Assembly (NCBI GenBank): GCA_036782995.1 | Contig: DAIPXZ010000001.1 | Span: 1-64,000, forward strand | Reading direction: 5' to 3' | Source: Bacillota bacterium | Lineage (GTDB): Bacteria; Bacillota; Clostridia; Saccharofermentanales; Saccharofermentanaceae | DNA length: 64,000 nt | Shown here: piece after piece, positions 25,852 through 32,531 of the stretch | How the letters are laid out: every line of letters starts with the position of its first letter | Numbering within the stretch: the first letter of the stretch is position 1 | Translations under genes and position numbers: made by a program | Notes under the pieces: model-generated | What the model was told of the DNA's origin: nothing | Databases searched by the model: none | Seen by the model: the letters and a program-made list of their open reading frames with translations, nothing else

Positions 25852-26502
25852 CTATATTGTTCCAATGATATCTTGCATTCCCCCAACATCAATGGAAAAA
25901 GCAATAATCAAGATGTTTGTTTCGTAATCACACTCGAGAACCATGGGAAAAAGGGAATCATTCACAATTAGCTCCATGCCATTCTCATCACTATTATCCT
26001 CGATATCGCTTGCATCATAGCAGTCGAAGATAAATGACTGTGCGTGATATTCAGCGCCCACCTTGCGGTCCTCATCTGTCGGGAATCGGACAACGTAGTA
26101 GTACTGAGAAGAATCCGAGACACTGGTTGCAACAAAGCCTTCACTCATATCAAAACCTAATGTGTCAGCGGTAGTAGAATTTCCTAAATCTTCAACGATA
26201 AAGTCCTCACTTTCGAGTAAATCTTTTATCGATTCCATCTCCAATGAGTAAACCTTCTCATTCGGATCATTGGTCGGCTCTGTCTCGCTAGGATCAATCG
26301 TTTCTATCGTGAAACTCGGCTCCTCTGTTTCAGTAGCCCGTTGGCGTTTCGTCGTCTCCTCGACAGTAGTCTCTATCGTGGTTTCTCTTCTTTCTCTTCT
26401 ACTACTTGAACCTTCGTCTTCATCGTCGCGCCTTACATTACAGCCTGACAAAATCACTGACGTAATCAGTATTCCGGAAAGTAGTAGCATTTCTTTTTTC
26501 AT
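25852..26502 (-). CDS. lipoprotein with acidic low-complexity linker, unknown function
   Basis: The start was set at MKKEMLLLSGILITSVILSGC (lipobox LSGC) with an AGGGGGGA RBS. An E/T/D/R-rich linker precedes a ~130-aa C-terminal domain. Confidence 0.65.
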   Translation of the reverse strand: MKKEMLLLSGILITSVILSGCNVRRDDEDEGSSSRRERRETTIETTVEETTKRQRATETEEPSFTIETIDPSETEPTNDPNEKVYSLEMESIKDLLESEDFIVEDLGNSTTADTLGFDMSEGFVATSVSDSSQYYYVVRFPTDEDRKVGAEYHAQSFIFDCYDASDIEDNSDENGMELIVNDSLFPMVLECDYETNILIIAFSIDVGGMQDIIGTI

Positions 26503-26764
26503 TTCGTTTGTCCCCCCTGTTTCTGGATTCATGATACAAGATAGTAAATGTCAATTCTGTAAATACGAAAATAATTTCACCCGTGTCCGTTGCATTTTGT
26601 TCACAAATTCATTTCGAACATGCAAGGCCCGCTTTGACAGCTTCAATGAATCGTATCTACACACTGCAAAAAGAGGCCGCCACGATACTCGTGACAGCCC
26701 CTTAATGTTATTTATAGAAGAGTAAGGTAATGATGGTATTTGTAAGTTACATAGATGCGACGAT

Positions 26765-28240
26765 TTATGCTTTCGTAACGGTAGCTGCAGATGATGTTTC
26801 CGCAATCGCTTCGCCAGCTCCCGCCAAATCAGCGGCATCGGCAACATTTTTCGCATTTACAGCAGAAGTATCCATCTTCTTTCCTAAGTAATCAGGAAGC
26901 TGCATACCTGCCATCTCAAAGATTTCATTCATCGGAGGCACGCTCTTCATAAGTCCGGATACAAAGTTCGCTGTGGAGCTTTTGCCGTCGCCATTGCTTC
27001 CTGCGCCGCTGTCCCAAACAGTAACCTTGTCGATCTTCAAGTCGCGGATTGCTTCGACCTGAATCTTCATCAAGGCCTCCATCTTATCGGCGAGCATGAG
27101 CATCATAGCATCTTTCGCATTGCCACCAGCAGCATCGACAATTTTCTCGAAACCAGCAGCTTGCTTGGTCAAAATCTCTTGCATACCACGAGCTTCTGCT
27201 TCCATCTTTGCATAGATAGCACTTGCTTCACCAACGGCTTGACGGCGAATTCTTTCACCTTCTGCTTCAGCAGCAAGCTCGATTTCACGTTTCTGAATCT
27301 CTGCCTTTACGATAACATCAGCTTCGAGTGTTGCTTTCTCACGAGCAGAACGAGAAAGCTCAGCTTCTTTTTCTGCAAGATATGCTTCTTCGAGGGCTTT
27401 AGCGGCTTGTACCTTTTCTGCAGCGATTGCGATACGCATCGACTCAGCAGCCTTCTCACGACGAAGCGCTTCGGATTGTGCAACTTCAATCTTCGCAGTG
27501 TTTTCACCTTGGATTGCGAGAGAGTTCGCAGATGCAACCTCGATACGCTGATCCTTCTGAGCAATCGCTTCACCAATAGAACCGTCGCGCTCTTTTTCAG
27601 CAACGTTCTTCTTCGCATCGTTGATTGCTTTTGCGGCAGCTTCTTTACCAAGAGCGGAGATATATCCGGATTCATCACTGATATCAGTAACGTTAACGTT
27701 AATCAAGCGAAGACCGATTTTCTTCAATTCTGTTTCCACGTTGCGGGAAACTGCTTCGAGGAACTTATCACGGTCGGTGTTGATTTCTTCGATGTCCATC
27801 GTTGCAATAACCAAACGAAGCTGACCGAAAATAATATCCTTCGCAAGGTCCTGAATGTCAACTAAATGAAGTCCGAGAAGACGCTCAGCTGCGTTTTGCA
27901 TAACGCCTTGTTCTGTCGAAATACCGACGGTAAAAATCGAAGGTACGTCAATACGAATGTTCTGACGAGAAAGAGCGCTCTTTAAGTCAACCGAGATAGA
28001 AATTGGTGTCAAATCGAGATAAGCATAAGATTGTATAATCGGCCATACAAAAGATGCACCACCATGAATACAACGAGAAGATCTTGTCGATCCATCCGTA
28101 TTTTTACCGACTTTACCATAGATGACCATGATGCGGTCAGAAGGGCACTTTCTAAAACGAGAAAGGAAAATCAGTAAGCAGGTAAATGCCAACACAGCAA
28201 CAATGATAAGAACAACGAGTACTTCAAAATCAAATGGCAT
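26765..28240 (-). CDS. flotillin-family SPFH/band-7 protein (FloT/YuaG-like)
   Basis: It has an N-terminal TM, an SPFH domain, and long Ala/Glu-rich coiled-coil repeats (EAxxAxKxx) typical of flotillins. Confidence 0.9.
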   Translation of the reverse strand: MPFDFEVLVVLIIVAVLAFTCLLIFLSRFRKCPSDRIMVIYGKVGKNTDGSTRSSRCIHGGASFVWPIIQSYAYLDLTPISISVDLKSALSRQNIRIDVPSIFTVGISTEQGVMQNAAERLLGLHLVDIQDLAKDIIFGQLRLVIATMDIEEINTDRDKFLEAVSRNVETELKKIGLRLINVNVTDISDESGYISALGKEAAAKAINDAKKNVAEKERDGSIGEAIAQKDQRIEVASANSLAIQGENTAKIEVAQSEALRREKAAESMRIAIAAEKVQAAKALEEAYLAEKEAELSRSAREKATLEADVIVKAEIQKREIELAAEAEGERIRRQAVGEASAIYAKMEAEARGMQEILTKQAAGFEKIVDAAGGNAKDAMMLMLADKMEALMKIQVEAIRDLKIDKVTVWDSGAGSNGDGKSSTANFVSGLMKSVPPMNEIFEMAGMQLPDYLGKKMDTSAVNAKNVADAADLAGAGEAIAETSSAATVTKA

Positions 28241-28256
28241 AGTATAATCCTCCTAT

Positions 28257-29252
28257 TTATTGTTTGGTTACGATCAGAGTATTACCACGTGTAATTCCAA
28301 TTACAGTGACAGATGCTCCGGTCGGAATCAACTGTTTATCATCAGTAACCGCATCAAATTCAGTTATTTGTTCTTGAACGGTTACCATGATTTTTCCAGA
28401 ACGCTCACGTGAAGCGGGAATCGGCAGATATGTTTCTCCGCTCTTTCTGAGCGCATACCGTATGTCCATCGTTCCGTCGTCCTGAAGCTTCAGCATCCCC
28501 CACATTGCCAAAGCCATTAAAAACATTGCAGCAAATCCACATATGAAAGCGAGGAAGGATGCCACAATAATGGGCAGACCCGCATGAATAAATATTAACC
28601 CTGTCCATCCGAAGATGCAAGCAAAGGCGATAATCCCCTGCATGGTAAAAAGGCGAAGCCCTGTACCATGTGTCTTGTCTGCAAGGTCGTGATAGACATT
28701 GTCTTGCGGCAGATGCGAGTCATCGATTCCAGCATCCTGTGGAAGTGAATGTGTCATATGAATCGTATCTATATAGATATCGCCAGGTAATGCGCCGGGG
28801 TGTAAAACCTCGACTGGGATATGCCCCCCGAGATCCCCATGCAGGTCCCCTTGAATATCTCCGAAATGTCCGTCAATATTCCCTGCATGAGAATCACCGA
28901 AGTATGCGTCACCCAATTGGGTATTCCCCAAATGAGCGTCTCCCATGGGAGTGTCTCCCATGTGACTTCCGAAGTCCCCCAAATGGCCATCACTAAGGTT
29001 CGTATCCCCTAAGTGAGTCCCCCCCATATGACTCCCGAAATCACCGGAATGACCCCCACCAAAATGAGCATCACCGGCGTGACCGCCTAGGTCAACATCG
29101 TGTCCGCCAAAATCCGGACCCGAATGTGCCGCACCTAAAATGAGTAGAATAGTTTCAAAAAACAGTAGCACTGCACCGACTATACCGATGCACGCATAGA
29201 TTTGTTCTACCAGCTCCATGCTTTCGAACCAATTAATGAACCATGCAAACAT
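28257..29252 (-). CDS. NfeD-like membrane protein (flotillin partner) with inserted His/Gly/Asp-rich repeat region
   Basis: The C-terminal OB-fold-like sequence GKIMVTVQEQITEFDAVTDDKQLIPTGASVTVIGITRGNTLIV is typical of NfeD/YuaF. It has TM helices, plus ~100 aa of GHxGD-type degenerate repeats (GHDVDLGGHAGDAHFGGGHSGDFGSHMGGTHLGD...). Confidence 0.7.
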   Translation of the reverse strand: MFAWFINWFESMELVEQIYACIGIVGAVLLFFETILLILGAAHSGPDFGGHDVDLGGHAGDAHFGGGHSGDFGSHMGGTHLGDTNLSDGHLGDFGSHMGDTPMGDAHLGNTQLGDAYFGDSHAGNIDGHFGDIQGDLHGDLGGHIPVEVLHPGALPGDIYIDTIHMTHSLPQDAGIDDSHLPQDNVYHDLADKTHGTGLRLFTMQGIIAFACIFGWTGLIFIHAGLPIIVASFLAFICGFAAMFLMALAMWGMLKLQDDGTMDIRYALRKSGETYLPIPASRERSGKIMVTVQEQITEFDAVTDDKQLIPTGASVTVIGITRGNTLIVTKQ

Positions 29253-29275: not shown

Positions 29276-29797
29276 TCAGCTTAATAATAGCTTCTCAGCT
29301 TCATGCTTTAAAACAATAGATAAGTGAGCGACATAAAGAATGGTGAGAAGCTTTTCTGCCTGCACTTTGCTGGTTCTTGTGTAATCCAACGGTACAAAAT
29401 CGATGGACTCTTCTACGAACTCCGCAAGCTTTGTCTCACTTCGAATTGGATCCGATGGTGTAAGAGAAAGCAAATGGCAAAAGGCTTTGTATACGAGATC
29501 ATCTTGTCCCACATACCTCAAAAGCTCGAGGATTTGTTCCAATGCAAACACATCCTTGAAGTAATTGAGGAGGGCGAGTCGCACAAACCGACTTCGGTCA
29601 TATAGCTTCTTGACCGGAGAAGGAATGAATCCGCGTTTTACCCAATTCTGTACGGTGTGTGGTTCAACACCGATGAGCTGTGTAATCTGTCTTAACTGCA
29701 TCCCCTCTGATAAAAACATCGGCCCATAGATTAAATCAACATCAGCTAAGTGCGACTGATTGACTTCTATCGTGGTACCGGGTAATCGAAAGGTCAT
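29276..29797 (-). CDS. MerR-like HTH / DUF1836-type protein, first gene of the nfeD-flotillin operon
   Basis: A candidate HTH is present (MQLRQITQLIGVEPHTVQNWVKRGFIP). The gene sits 23 nt upstream of the NfeD gene. Confidence 0.45.
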   Translation of the reverse strand: MTFRLPGTTIEVNQSHLADVDLIYGPMFLSEGMQLRQITQLIGVEPHTVQNWVKRGFIPSPVKKLYDRSRFVRLALLNYFKDVFALEQILELLRYVGQDDLVYKAFCHLLSLTPSDPIRSETKLAEFVEESIDFVPLDYTRTSKVQAEKLLTILYVAHLSIVLKHEAEKLLLS

Positions 29798-29997
29798 ATT
29801 GTGCGCCTCCTTTCCGTTCGATGGTTGAATTATATCAGACGGTCACTTGACTGTCAACAACGTTCGCGCGATTTTTTGGCATTGTTTTCTGTTCGGAATT
29901 GTGAATGCCTTTTCATCTATTTCCTGCCGCAAAAGAAAACAAATATGTATTAATGCATGGTAAAATGAATTCAACCTATGAATCGGAGGACACGATA

Positions 29998-30948
29998 ATG
30001 ACATGTACTTCATATTCATTTACTAGCGCTGATGGCGCTACTTCTATTCAATACTTTGTTTGGCCGCCAAAGTCTGCTGCGCGCGGTGTAATGCAAATCT
30101 CGCACGGTATGTGTGAATACATGGGACGATATGACGAGATGGCGGAATTTTTAAAACGAAAAGGTTTTGTTGTTTGCGGACTCGATCATTTGGGACATGG
30201 CGAATCGGTTGGTGAAAAGGATACATTCGGCTATTTTGGAAAGAAATATGGGCCGGATTTTCTCGTAGAGGATCAGGAAAAGCTACATCGTATTATGACT
30301 GACCTATACCCTGATGCGCCCTATATTATGTACGGACATTCGATGGGTTCATTTATCGCGCGACTTTGGTATGAAAAGTACGGTAACGATATTTCAGCCG
30401 TGATTTTCTCAGGCACAGCGACAGCTAATCCACTGGCAACGCCGCTTAAAGGCTTGGCACATCTTTCGATTCTTTTGCGTGGTGACAGAAAGCCAGCCGA
30501 CTTCATCGGGCGCACGATGTCGAAGGTATATACATCAAAGATTGAAAAGGTGCAAACCAACTCAGACTGGATTTCGCATGATTCGGACATAGTAAAGAAG
30601 TATGTGAATGATCCGTTTTGTAACTATACGTTTACGGATCGCGGGTATATTGACCTTTTCACAATGTTAGCGCGATGTAATCGCAAGAAGTGGTTTGCGA
30701 AGATTCCGAAGGATAAGCCGATGCTATTATTGTCGGGCACAGAAGATCCGGTCGGTGACTATGGCAAGGGCGTGATGATAGTAACGAAGAAGCTGCAAGA
30801 ATCAGGACAGAACCGCCTCATCATCGATCTTCGCTCGGGTATGCGTCACGAGCCACATAACGAGATAAATCGCAAGGTGATTTATCAACGACTTGAGGCT
30901 TTTCTGGTTGAAGTCGTGGAAAAGAACGGAAAAAAATCTGAAGTCTAA
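29998..30948 (+). CDS. alpha/beta hydrolase, lysophospholipase/monoacylglycerol-lipase-like
   Basis: It has an HGMCEY (HG) motif and a GHSMGS nucleophile elbow. The start was set at the ATG at 29998, 7 nt after a GGAGGA RBS. Confidence 0.8.
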   Translation: MTCTSYSFTSADGATSIQYFVWPPKSAARGVMQISHGMCEYMGRYDEMAEFLKRKGFVVCGLDHLGHGESVGEKDTFGYFGKKYGPDFLVEDQEKLHRIMTDLYPDAPYIMYGHSMGSFIARLWYEKYGNDISAVIFSGTATANPLATPLKGLAHLSILLRGDRKPADFIGRTMSKVYTSKIEKVQTNSDWISHDSDIVKKYVNDPFCNYTFTDRGYIDLFTMLARCNRKKWFAKIPKDKPMLLLSGTEDPVGDYGKGVMIVTKKLQESGQNRLIIDLRSGMRHEPHNEINRKVIYQRLEAFLVEVVEKNGKKSEV

Positions 30949-30980: not shown

Positions 30981-32531
30981 TTACAGTATCGGAGCAAACA
31001 GGCGGAGAATTTGGCGTGCGACACTCCACGTTGGGTTATAACGTAATTCTTCAGGAAGAAGCTCATCAGAGACATCAAGGATTTGCATGAAATCTTCTTT
31101 GACGGACGCAATAGAGGGCGTATCGAGAAGCCAGACACCACATTCAAAATGAAGATAGAGGCTGCGATAATCGAGGTTGACTGTACCTACTGTTGCGCAA
31201 CGATCATCAACGATGAAGGCTTTGCTGTGGATGAAGCCAGGTGTGTAGGTGTATATTTTGACCCCTGCGGTAACGAGATCACGGAAAGAGGAGCGCGAGG
31301 CCTGGTATATTATCCATTTGTCCCATTTTCCCGGTGTAACAATACGCACGTCTATCCCGCTTTTGGCGGCGAGACAAAGGGCTGAAATCATGGAGTCGTC
31401 GATAATGAGATATGGCGTACTAATGTAGATGTATTTTTGAGCGGTTGTAATCATATGCATGTAGACGTGTTCAGATACATGCTCTGAATCAATCGGGGAA
31501 TCACAATAGGGTTGCACGTAGCCTTGAGTAGCTGAAAGTGTCGGCGGAGCTTCGTTCTTCCACGGATAAAAATCATAATAGTTATCTGGCGCTTTCTGCG
31601 CGATTTGCCATATTTCAAGGAAAAAGAGTGTGAGCGACCAAGCCGCCTCACCACGAACCATAATGGCAGAATCCTTCCAGTAGCCATGCTTTTGTATGAC
31701 GTTGATATATTCGTCAGAGAGATTGATACCGCCCGTGAACGCGCATTTCCCGTCGATTGCCGTGATTTTTCGGTGGTCACGGTTGTTTTGAATGGTCGTC
31801 ACAAAGGGCGAAAACGGGTTGAAGATGATACACTTTATTCCTTTGTCCTGCATATTCTGACGAAAGTGTTTTGGCAAGGTTAAAAAACAGCCAACATCGT
31901 CATATATGATACGAACTTCGATGCCCTGCGCGGCTTTGCGTTCGAGAATATCAATAATCGCATCCCACATAACGCCATTTTCGATGATAAAGTATTCCAT
32001 GAAAATGTATTTCTCCGCTTTTTCGAGTTCCTCCAAGAGGCGCGGAAAGAAGACTTCTCCCGGAGTAAGAAATTCGGTCTCTGTATTGGAATATACGGGA
32101 AAGCCCTCCTGCATGTCGAGATAGCGCATGTTGACCGTATAGGAAGGAGCATCATGTCGTGCACGAAGATGAGCGGTTTTTACCGATGGTGGCAATCGAA
32201 AGAGAGGGCGTACCTCTGCTTCGACACGTGCCGATGCGCGCACATATGATTTTGTCGTTCGTTGGTTGTTAAAGAAGATGTACATGACACCGCCGATTGT
32301 CGGCATAAGCAAAACAAGAAAAACCCAAATGAGCTTATACCCGCCCTTGTCTTTTTTACTGACAACATAGAGCGCGACGAGCAAGCTTAAGAGACGAAAC
32401 AGCAATGAGATGATACCGGAATAGCTGCCACCAATTAAAATGAGAACCACAAGAACCCCGATTTCCAATAGAATCAGAAAGCAGAAAAATATGCGACGTA
32501 AGATAAATGAAGGAAACAAGTGATTTCTCAT
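30981..32531 (-). CDS. cls: cardiolipin synthase (phospholipase D superfamily, two HKD motifs)
   Basis: It has 2 N-terminal TM helices and two HxKxxxxD motifs (one is IHSKAFIVDDRCATVGTVNLDYRS). Confidence 0.9.
   Translation of the reverse strand: MRNHLFPSFILRRIFFCFLILLEIGVLVVLILIGGSYSGIISLLFRLLSLLVALYVVSKKDKGGYKLIWVFLVLLMPTIGGVMYIFFNNQRTTKSYVRASARVEAEVRPLFRLPPSVKTAHLRARHDAPSYTVNMRYLDMQEGFPVYSNTETEFLTPGEVFFPRLLEELEKAEKYIFMEYFIIENGVMWDAIIDILERKAAQGIEVRIIYDDVGCFLTLPKHFRQNMQDKGIKCIIFNPFSPFVTTIQNNRDHRKITAIDGKCAFTGGINLSDEYINVIQKHGYWKDSAIMVRGEAAWSLTLFFLEIWQIAQKAPDNYYDFYPWKNEAPPTLSATQGYVQPYCDSPIDSEHVSEHVYMHMITTAQKYIYISTPYLIIDDSMISALCLAAKSGIDVRIVTPGKWDKWIIYQASRSSFRDLVTAGVKIYTYTPGFIHSKAFIVDDRCATVGTVNLDYRSLYLHFECGVWLLDTPSIASVKEDFMQILDVSDELLPEELRYNPTWSVARQILRLFAPIL

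Follow-up and report, generated by a model that had tools for sequence, protein, structure and literature searches.

The closest described counterparts of the locus studied here are gene pairs that encode an NfeD protein and a flotillin. In Bacillus subtilis, yuaF lies directly upstream of an SPFH2-class flotillin gene, and the same NfeD2/SPFH2 arrangement is described for yqiJ-yqiK (PMC2636767). The NfeD protein of Staphylococcus aureus is the operon partner of an SPFH protein and is reported to stabilize oligomers of the flotillin FloA and to bind FloA through a cytosolic OB domain (PMC11222466). YbbJ is likewise the operon partner of an SPFH protein, and 26 QmcA-YbbJ heterodimers assemble into a cage at the cytoplasmic face (Tan et al. 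2024, as cited in PMC13086221). The role of NfeD is still called unclear (PMC13086221; PMC11222466). Attention has so far been on the OB domain and the transmembrane (TM) region, and the accessible text of the accounts of S. aureus NfeD-FloA and of QmcA-YbbJ mentions no long acidic or His-rich loop (PMC11222466; PMC13086221). Here, we describe a 64,000-nucleotide (nt) stretch of Bacillota DNA (contig DAIPXZ010000001.1, positions 1 to 64,000; hereafter, the window) that encodes a predicted NfeD2-type protein with a Gly/His/Asp repeat tract between its first and second TM helices. Sequence comparison identifies this tract as a lineage-specific expansion of an acidic TM1-TM2 loop that is constant in one large subfamily.

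A degenerate Gly/His/Asp repeat in a predicted NfeD2-type protein

The gene in question encodes a membrane protein of 331 amino acids (aa) on the minus strand (28257..29252, stop included; taken from the list of open reading frames, or ORFs), which is identical to a protein that public databases list as a hypothetical protein from a Bacillota metagenome-assembled genome (MAG). Its residues 50 to 144 (28821..29105, minus strand) form a tract of degenerate H-phi-G-D units, where phi is a hydrophobic residue. These residues match letter for letter the ~100-residue tract that had been quoted in a previous reading of the DNA (hereafter, the original prediction) and that had been placed at 28830..29120, which is the right location with ends that are off by ~10 to 15 nt. 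The 95 residues comprise 27 Gly, 15 Asp, and 13 His, and the composition (G 28%, D 16%, H 14%) clearly differs from that of the remaining protein (9, 6, and 3%). The order of the residues is nonrandom as well. Upon 20,000 permutations of the tract's own residues, the motif H-x-G-[DN] (H-phi-G-[DN]) occurred 0.70 times on average and in none of the shuffles reached the 8 occurrences that the tract contains; likewise, phi-G-[DN] was found 10 times in the tract versus 1.3 times in shuffles. The residue autocorrelation peaked at lags of 5, 10, and 15 and, additionally, at 7 and 12. A strict period of 5 was confined to about six central units (HMGDT PMGDA HLGNT QLGDA YFGDS HAGN), and across about six units every fifth residue was hydrophobic and the residue two places ahead of it small. 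The tract is thus a genuine degenerate repeat. The ~18 pentapeptide units, each carrying a His, that were originally proposed were not recovered: we counted 13 G[DN] units and 13 His, and some units lack a His.

The His residues of the tract show a distinct local pattern. Gly follows at position +2 in 77% of cases and Asp at +3 in 54%, a His and an Asp lie three residues apart for 7 of the 13 tract His, and the tract of the window protein has only 2 HD dipeptides. We found no HH or HxH clusters in it, with successive His spaced 5 to 15 residues apart. Among the ORFs of the window, the tract is the densest stretch of His, yet it reaches only 8 His per 50 aa. No bearer of its repeat was found outside the family: a tract-only search of 5.8 billion proteins yielded nine word-sharing candidates, none of them at E ≤ 0.01, where the handling of biased composition by HMMER limits the test such that even the source protein itself was not returned. 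A Pfam scan of the tract recognized no metal-binding repeat.

Hydropathy places the tract between TM1 (aa ~17 to 42) and TM2/TM3 (aa ~203 to 253), and an AlphaFold2 (AF2) model built on 50 homologs agrees with this position between the first TM helix and the remaining protein, as originally proposed. In the model, a short N-terminal tail free of Lys and Arg is joined to TM1 (aa 1 to 42, 29127..29252, minus strand, as are all features of the protein), with helices at residues 2 to 10 and 14 to 38 and a predicted local distance difference test score (pLDDT) of >87. After the loop follows a TM2-turn-TM3 hairpin (aa 203 to 260, 28473..28646; helices 204 to 223 and 228 to 260, pLDDT 89 to 98) that carries a conserved FGWTG motif and in which F210, W216, and G239 are invariant across 50 relatives. 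The protein ends in a predicted five-stranded OB-like barrel of the YuaF, PH0471, and PH1510-C type, the partner-binding domain of NfeD proteins (aa 264 to 331, 28260..28463; strands 271 to 276, 286 to 292, 295 to 303, 314 to 320, and 325 to 330, pLDDT 85 to 97). The loop between TM1 and TM2 was modeled very differently, with a pLDDT of <50 over residues 43 to 99, 103 to 154, 156 to 168, and 187 to 196, a sole short helix at residues 178 to 180, and values of 36 to 46 without secondary structure in the tract. Judging from this model, the 157-residue loop (aa 44 to 200), of which the tract makes up the first two-thirds, is probably intrinsically disordered.

The assignment of the host to the NfeD-family flotillin partners, which the original prediction had made, was borne out by fold comparison. 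In a Foldseek search of the PDB with the predicted barrel, the top four matches were all NfeD OB domains, namely, YuaF (2K14, E = 7.4e-5), 3CP0 (1.2e-4), Escherichia coli YbbJ in the QmcA-YbbJ complex (8Z5G, 1.3e-4), and Pyrococcus PH1510-C (3WWV, 6.1e-4), and the next match was ~35 times weaker (2.2e-2). Sequence profiles supported the assignment weakly: the Pfam NfeD family (PF01957) matched at 15.8 bits (E = 0.016), below its cut-off of 29.1, with similarly weak matches in 39 of 50 relatives (best E = 2.8e-4), and an NCBIfam search found no match for the protein; NCBI names several of its orthologs "NfeD family protein." In a sequence-profile search of the PDB, a single short motif gave rise to spurious matches to designed beta-propeller "Bagel" proteins, and YuaF scored no better than E = 0.71, so that the OB domain was settled by fold.

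Gene order points the same way. A gene for a 491-aa flotillin (SPFH/Band 7; 26765..28240, minus strand) begins 16 nt downstream of the NfeD gene, with a Pfam Band_7 match at 5.1e-27 and a match to the NCBIfam FloT model at 2.7e-44 that is far below the cut-off of that model. A flotillin homolog (60 to 89% identity) is the next gene downstream at each of the 81 related loci, so that the flotillin operon of the original prediction is a constant feature. This order is the NfeD2/SPFH2 arrangement described for yuaF-yuaG and yqiJ-yqiK (PMC2636767). With a predicted fold, a membrane anchor, and a gene order that all fit the definition, the host is an NfeD2-type flotillin partner, and from homology and gene order we infer that its OB domain binds the flotillin and supports its oligomerization.

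Among the described proteins, B. subtilis YuaF (NfeD2; soluble-domain structure 2K14), the partner of the flotillin FloT/YuaG, is the best match to the predicted barrel, and in both proteins an OB domain comes after a hydrophobic N-terminal region. In sequence, the two are marginally similar (22% identity across the barrel and a weak profile match), and the 157-residue loop belongs to the window protein. E. coli YqiJ (DUF1449; Pfam YqiJ_N and YqiJ_OB), the partner of the flotillin YqiK, shares gene order and architecture with the window pair. In E. coli K-12, YqiJ (locus L082, 2209..2838) has a His/Asp-rich stretch right after its first hydrophobic helix, in a loop of about 30 aa that is not repetitive. 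Membership of the window protein in the YqiJ family was rejected, with an hhalign probability of 0.2 for the family profile against YqiJ and no match to PF21001 or PF07290 at E ≤ 0.1, whereas E. coli YqiJ scores 1e-15 and 2e-14. The His/Asp-rich segments of YqiJ and of the window family may, from their sequences, reflect convergence within NfeD2-type proteins.

An acidic TM1-TM2 loop throughout the subfamily

We searched 1.84 billion cluster representatives with HMMER and obtained 2,236 relatives at E ≤ 1e-3 (997 at E ≤ 1e-10). These 2,236 clusters at 50% identity constitute the subfamily, which among the sampled genomes is mostly found in Clostridia, and nearly all of its best 150 members are 190 to 280 aa long. 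The TM1-TM2 loop was extracted from 249 relatives, which comprised protein matches and 80 loci of species-representative genomes; the genome scan used a 14-sequence alignment as its query, as the 50-sequence family alignment had no usable conserved stretch. Far from being absent from all relatives, the loop was present in every one examined: 249 of 249 carry a net-acidic loop at this position that is rich in Asp and Gly and nearly free of Lys and Arg, with a median length of ~54 aa. Pooling the 205 shorter loops gave D 23.5%, G 16.5%, H 5.6%, K 0.3%, and R 1.3%. Loop length ranges from about 25 to >200 aa, with many indels even between close relatives. Because every relative examined has an acidic Asp/Gly-rich loop there, the loop is not a foreign insertion; by the same sequence comparison, the window tract is a lineage-specific expansion of the family's acidic low-complexity loop. 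The original statement that NfeD proteins normally lack such an insert can be kept for the short YbbJ-type NfeDs, which are not known to carry such a loop, and it fails for the protein's own subfamily.

Nor is the long, His-bearing version unique to the window. About 24 species-level lineages have a longer and more His-rich loop, and YqiJ has its short His/Asp-rich one. The long loops belong to one clade, which comprises at least 24 clusters (90% identity), has loops of 159 to 221 aa with 22 to 30 His, and derives entirely from uncultured rumen and gut Clostridia (buffalo, sheep, yak, goat, reindeer, and horse; labeled, e.g., "Mageeibacillus sp. UBA" or "Candidatus Scatonaster"). These rumen and gut proteins (e.g., MBP5493416.1 and MBQ4185405.1; loci L002-L025) are true orthologs of the window protein, with ~69% identity over the core from TM2 to the OB domain, the same three-gene operon, and the same divergent alpha/beta hydrolase gene. 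The window protein is the most divergent member of this clade and has its shortest loop (156 to 159 aa upon automated extraction; 157 aa as aa 44 to 200), its 19 His falling below the range of the others and the His density of its tract being the lowest in the clade.

The tract is unalignable and indel-rich between the window protein and these orthologs. The loops of the long-loop relatives nevertheless hold H 11 to 17%, D 15 to 21%, and G 16 to 24% despite their indels. Their unit is G-H-D-phi with a period of 4, as evidenced by 549 HD dipeptides compared to 214 ± 12 in shuffles and by half of all His preceding an Asp, as opposed to the H-phi-G-D unit of the window protein with its period of 5 to 7. 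Two repeat units thus share one composition. Alignable motifs occur solely in the His/Asp/Pro-rich second half of the loop (aa 145 to 200, 28653..28820; pLDDT mostly <55), namely, ..H-x-G-D-I-Y.. and D-K-x-H-G-x-G-L-R-L-F, and G157, D158, Y160, and G198 are invariant there in the 14-sequence alignment. We also observed that ..D-V-H-x-G-D-[IW]-Y.. and, just before TM2, G-L-R-L-F-T are kept across the clade and its short-loop relatives; these motifs may be functional anchor points of an otherwise free-evolving loop.

In most of the family, the loop is Asp-rich with 0 to 2 His. His-rich versions (≥5 His and ≥10%) account for 35 of the 205 short loops and are scattered through the family: for several of them, the nearest neighbors by core identity have 0 to 1 His. 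Examples are P0159 (HMDHGADL repeats, 20 His), P0150 (GDHFD repeats, 14 His), and P0099. Cultured relatives whose loop contains His include Christensenella spp. and Fumia xinanensis (loci L026, L028, and L039). In six relatives (L043, L044, L068, L080, P0074, and P0148), we observed DLDGDG[VI]PD units that resemble the Ca-binding DxDxDG and thrombospondin type 3 repeats. In the literature searched, no paper combined NfeD with "histidine-rich," and none was found that dealt with an NfeD loop of disordered or acidic character. Hence, neither the acidic loop of the family nor its His-rich expansions appear to have been described; they are still a compositional feature of a known protein class.

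An almost erased repeat at the DNA level and a stable tract length

Little of the repeat is left in the nucleotide sequence. Tandem Repeats Finder reported a single 15-nt unit in the tract DNA with ~2 copies, a repeat-family search returned weak families of 13 to 18 nt only, and the Gly, His, and Asp codons are mixed within the tract. This near loss of the DNA repeat and the mixing of the codons indicate that the tract is old and has long been held in frame. Consistent with this, the repeat-length variation between strains that the original prediction had raised was essentially absent. Within the window protein's cluster, the three full-length sequences are all 331 aa long, and the tract is identical over aa 76 to 144, i.e., over the portion that is present in all four sequences; in a relative's cluster of 68 members, we found a single indel of 1 aa in the tract. 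A strain-level contingency locus, in which slippage would vary the tract length, was ruled out by the constant 331 aa, the 1-aa indel among 68 members, and the near-erased DNA repeat. One relative, a MAG of Candidatus Scatonaster coprocaballi (L012, 4189..4304), retains a 12-nt tandem array of 9.7 copies with 72% matches that encodes the GHD-phi unit. Since this array is still recognizable, slippage presumably generated His tracts of this kind, and did so more recently in L012 than in the window. Two ORFs on the opposite strand (28670..28996 and 28821..29012, plus strand) were set aside as shadows of the conserved minus-strand gene.

Predicted topology and charge of the loop

The distribution of positive charge bears on which side of the membrane the loop occupies. 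Averaged over 147 relatives, the number of Lys plus Arg is 0.29 in the N-terminal tail (~14 aa), 1.4 in the 12 residues around the motif preceding TM2, and 3.87 in the 30 aa after TM3. In the flotillin, the N-terminal TM helix is followed by the motif SRFRK, which would place its SPFH domain inside. Since the loop lies two TM helices away from the OB domain, which is reportedly cytosolic in S. aureus, it should be cytoplasmic as well and lie on the face of the flotillin assembly. From this charge bias and the homologous systems, we infer a topology with the N-terminal tail outside and both the loop and the OB domain inside.

The loop contains 25 Asp plus Glu, 2 Lys plus Arg, and 19 His, for which we calculated a net charge of -21.6 at pH 7.5, -9.2 at pH 6.0, and -5.5 at pH 5.5.

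A possible role of the loop and competing explanations

On these grounds, we tentatively propose, with confidence that falls somewhat short of even, that the loop is a disordered polyanionic tether or brush beside the flotillin-NfeD assembly, with protons or metal ions tuning its charge. In such a mechanism, the loop would form a flexible polyanion at the assembly, and its ~19 His would set its charge and compaction. Protonation of the His, or coordination of divalent metals by His/Asp pairs, would strip most of the negative charge, upon which a collapse of the regularly spaced hydrophobic residues, either together or against the membrane, could alter the packing of NfeD and flotillin. In this way, protons or metal ions would tune how far the loop extends, how strongly anionic lipids repel it, and how it self-associates. 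A further step, which we consider unlikely as it stands, would be that NfeD2-type flotillin partners of Clostridia bear a cytoplasmic, disordered polyanionic loop as a trait of the family and that this loop gained His in several lineages, most strongly in the rumen and gut Clostridia including the source of the window, to become a proton- or metal-titratable brush, so that microdomain scaffolding responds to cytoplasmic pH or metal load.

The same residues could also constitute a dedicated metal site, as the original prediction had suggested, where the His/Asp array would bind Zn, Ni, Co, Cu, or Fe specifically and either act as a store or buffer or render the flotillin-NfeD scaffolding metal dependent. 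Metal binding is known for the cytoplasmic His-rich loops of cation diffusion facilitator (CDF) and ZIP transporters and for His-rich proteins of the kind of Hpn; these are disordered, cytoplasmic segments rich in His plus Asp/Glu on or near membrane proteins. They usually carry the HH or HxH clusters that the tract lacks, however, and their hosts have a demonstrated metal function, whereas the window host is a scaffold partner without metal context. Going by its composition (13 His and 15 Asp per 95 residues, with His and Asp three apart for 7 of 13), the tract peptide would very likely bind metal or an immobilized metal affinity resin in vitro, although such binding alone would not prove a physiological role. 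The HD dipeptides of the relatives (549 versus 214 shuffled), their 11 to 17% His sustained across loops of 159 to 221 aa, and the scattering of His-rich versions among His-poor relatives fit a metal site too, and some SPFH proteins have been tied to ion or metal metabolism (PMC13086221). The surroundings of the gene argue otherwise, as no metal transporter, metallochaperone, or metalloregulator is present within ~8 kb on either side, and the upstream MerR/DUF1836 protein has, upon sequence inspection, one Cys and none of the Cys/His clusters typical of metal-sensing MerR proteins. The 0 to 2 His of most family loops further imply that His is optional for the function of the family, and the window tract, with the lowest His density of the long-loop clade, contains nothing that Pfam sees as a metal-binding repeat. 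A specific metal function is plausible from the sequence, and a dedicated site seems to us rather unlikely. A different explanation dispenses with function altogether: the tract might be a tolerated low-complexity expansion, i.e., a spacer indifferent to its content that grew by replication slippage and was blurred by point mutation. Such a spacer would account for the spread of loop lengths from ~25 to >200 aa with many indels among close relatives, for a tract that is unalignable and built of a different unit than that of the nearest relatives, for the 12-nt array persisting in one of these, for the predicted disorder, and for the tract-only search of 5.8 billion proteins that found nothing similar. 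It sits less easily with 249 of 249 loops being net acidic and almost devoid of Lys and Arg, which is unlike unconstrained drift, or with the His/Asp/Gly composition that the long-loop relatives retained despite the changed unit, the lack of length variation among strains, and the fully mixed codons that point to a long-maintained frame and length. Taken together, the conserved composition, the unit switch, the scattered His, and the stability among strains argue against both pure drift and a phase-variable tract, and we regard the tolerated spacer, in which case the tract would be an ordinary low-complexity expansion, as rather doubtful.

Two other explanations are much less probable. The loop could face the cell wall and bind Ca2+ or Mg2+ or wall components, for which the DLDGDG[VI]PD units of some relatives, with their resemblance to DxDxDG and thrombospondin type 3 repeats, and the absence of positive charge directly after TM1 would speak. 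The calcium-repeat reading was rejected, since TSP_3 and TSP3_bac have no match in the window tract and matched the relatives carrying these units only at a nonsignificant E of about 0.5. The topology is at odds with such an extracytoplasmic loop as well: the loop is two TM helices away from an OB domain for which a cytosolic location is reported in the systems examined so far (PMC11222466; Tan et al. 2024, as cited in PMC13086221), the N-terminal tail has hardly any Lys or Arg, which instead accumulate behind TM3 and ahead of TM2, and SRFRK after the TM helix of the flotillin puts the SPFH domain inside. We consider a wall-side loop very unlikely. Even more improbable, in our judgment close to negligible, is a folded repeat domain in which period-5 units (phi-G-D-small-x) stack into a pentapeptide-like beta-helix or another solenoid, as the autocorrelation peaks at 5, 10, and 15 and the hydrophobic residue at every fifth position over about six units might suggest. 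Pfam pentapeptide families (PF00805 and relatives) gave no match beyond GETHR at E = 0.053, below the cut-off, and AF2 placed no strands in the tract at a pLDDT around 40, upon which the pentapeptide beta-helix was rejected. The periodicity is moreover irregular (5, 7, 10, and 12), and the closest relatives use a period-4 unit, which implies no common conserved fold.

Several points count against the polyanionic tether that we favor. Its cytoplasmic placement is drawn from charge bias and homologous systems, the AF2 disorder call is weak evidence in a low-complexity segment with a poor alignment, and its proposed function comes from sequence comparison, by which a proton switch and a metal switch cannot be told apart. 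Composition can also be conserved without selection when a few founder units slip repeatedly, and one relative retains the 12-nt array of 9.7 copies. The neighboring genes (an alpha/beta hydrolase, a PLD-type gene, an EAL-domain protein, and ABC transporters) give no hint of pH or metal stress. If the less likely titratable brush is nonetheless correct, bacterial flotillins would be subject to a kind of regulation not previously described. With one loop per subunit and a 1:1 stoichiometry as reported for QmcA-YbbJ, tens of loop copies would be present per flotillin assembly, and should the charge of the loop control the packing of NfeD and flotillin, pH or metal ions would have a simple route onto bacterial membrane microdomains.

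The operon and its neighborhood

The NfeD gene lies 23 nt downstream of a gene on the same strand that encodes a 173-aa DUF1836/MerR-type helix-turn-helix protein (29276..29797, minus strand; Pfam DUF1836 2.1e-10, MerR_1 4.9e-5). About 30 nt upstream of this first gene is a sigma-70–type promoter-like site (29829..29857, minus strand) with TTGACA, a 17-nt spacer, and TATAAT preceded by the TG of an extended -10 element; it matches the consensus at 12 of 12 positions as a pattern match only, in a region whose total of promoter-like sites is not above shuffle expectation. We found no terminator-like site between the ends of the three genes. The promoter-like site, the gene order, and the lack of an intervening terminator suggest, from the sequence, a three-gene operon of regulator, NfeD, and flotillin. 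Most of the 81 related loci have a DUF1836/MerR homolog (29 to 65% identity) upstream of the NfeD and flotillin genes, and an uncharacterized family of DUF1836 regulators is thus recurrently paired with flotillin operons in Clostridia.

The two membrane partners differ strongly in conservation. Flotillin identity is 83 to 89% across the long-loop clade and 60 to 85% elsewhere, compared to 35 to 49% for NfeD over its whole length (with the core at ~69% in the long-loop clade). By these identities, flotillin and NfeD evolve at very different rates although they are operon partners. The C-terminal tail of the flotillin (26765..26980, minus strand, in the window) is a variable low-complexity segment rich in Ala, Pro, Glu, and Lys and without His, and the protein ranges from ~465 to 557 aa in relatives. 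Among the flotillins of L001-L070, we found no feature that co-evolves with the loop, as tail length does not obviously track the length of the NfeD loop.

Just downstream of the flotillin gene, an ORF of 226 aa (25852..26532, minus strand) has a lipoprotein-like N terminus, with weak matches to NCBIfam lipoprotein models only and no Pfam family, and a low-complexity stretch rich in Glu, Thr, and Arg. On the other side of the operon lies a divergent alpha/beta hydrolase gene (29905..30948, plus strand; Hydrolase_4, 1e-40), of which each complete long-loop locus has a homolog close to the operon and opposite to it in strand. In the window, the hydrolase gene is followed by a PLD-type, cardiolipin-synthase-like gene (30981..32531, minus strand), and together with the hydrolase this gives the operon two lipid-related neighbors.

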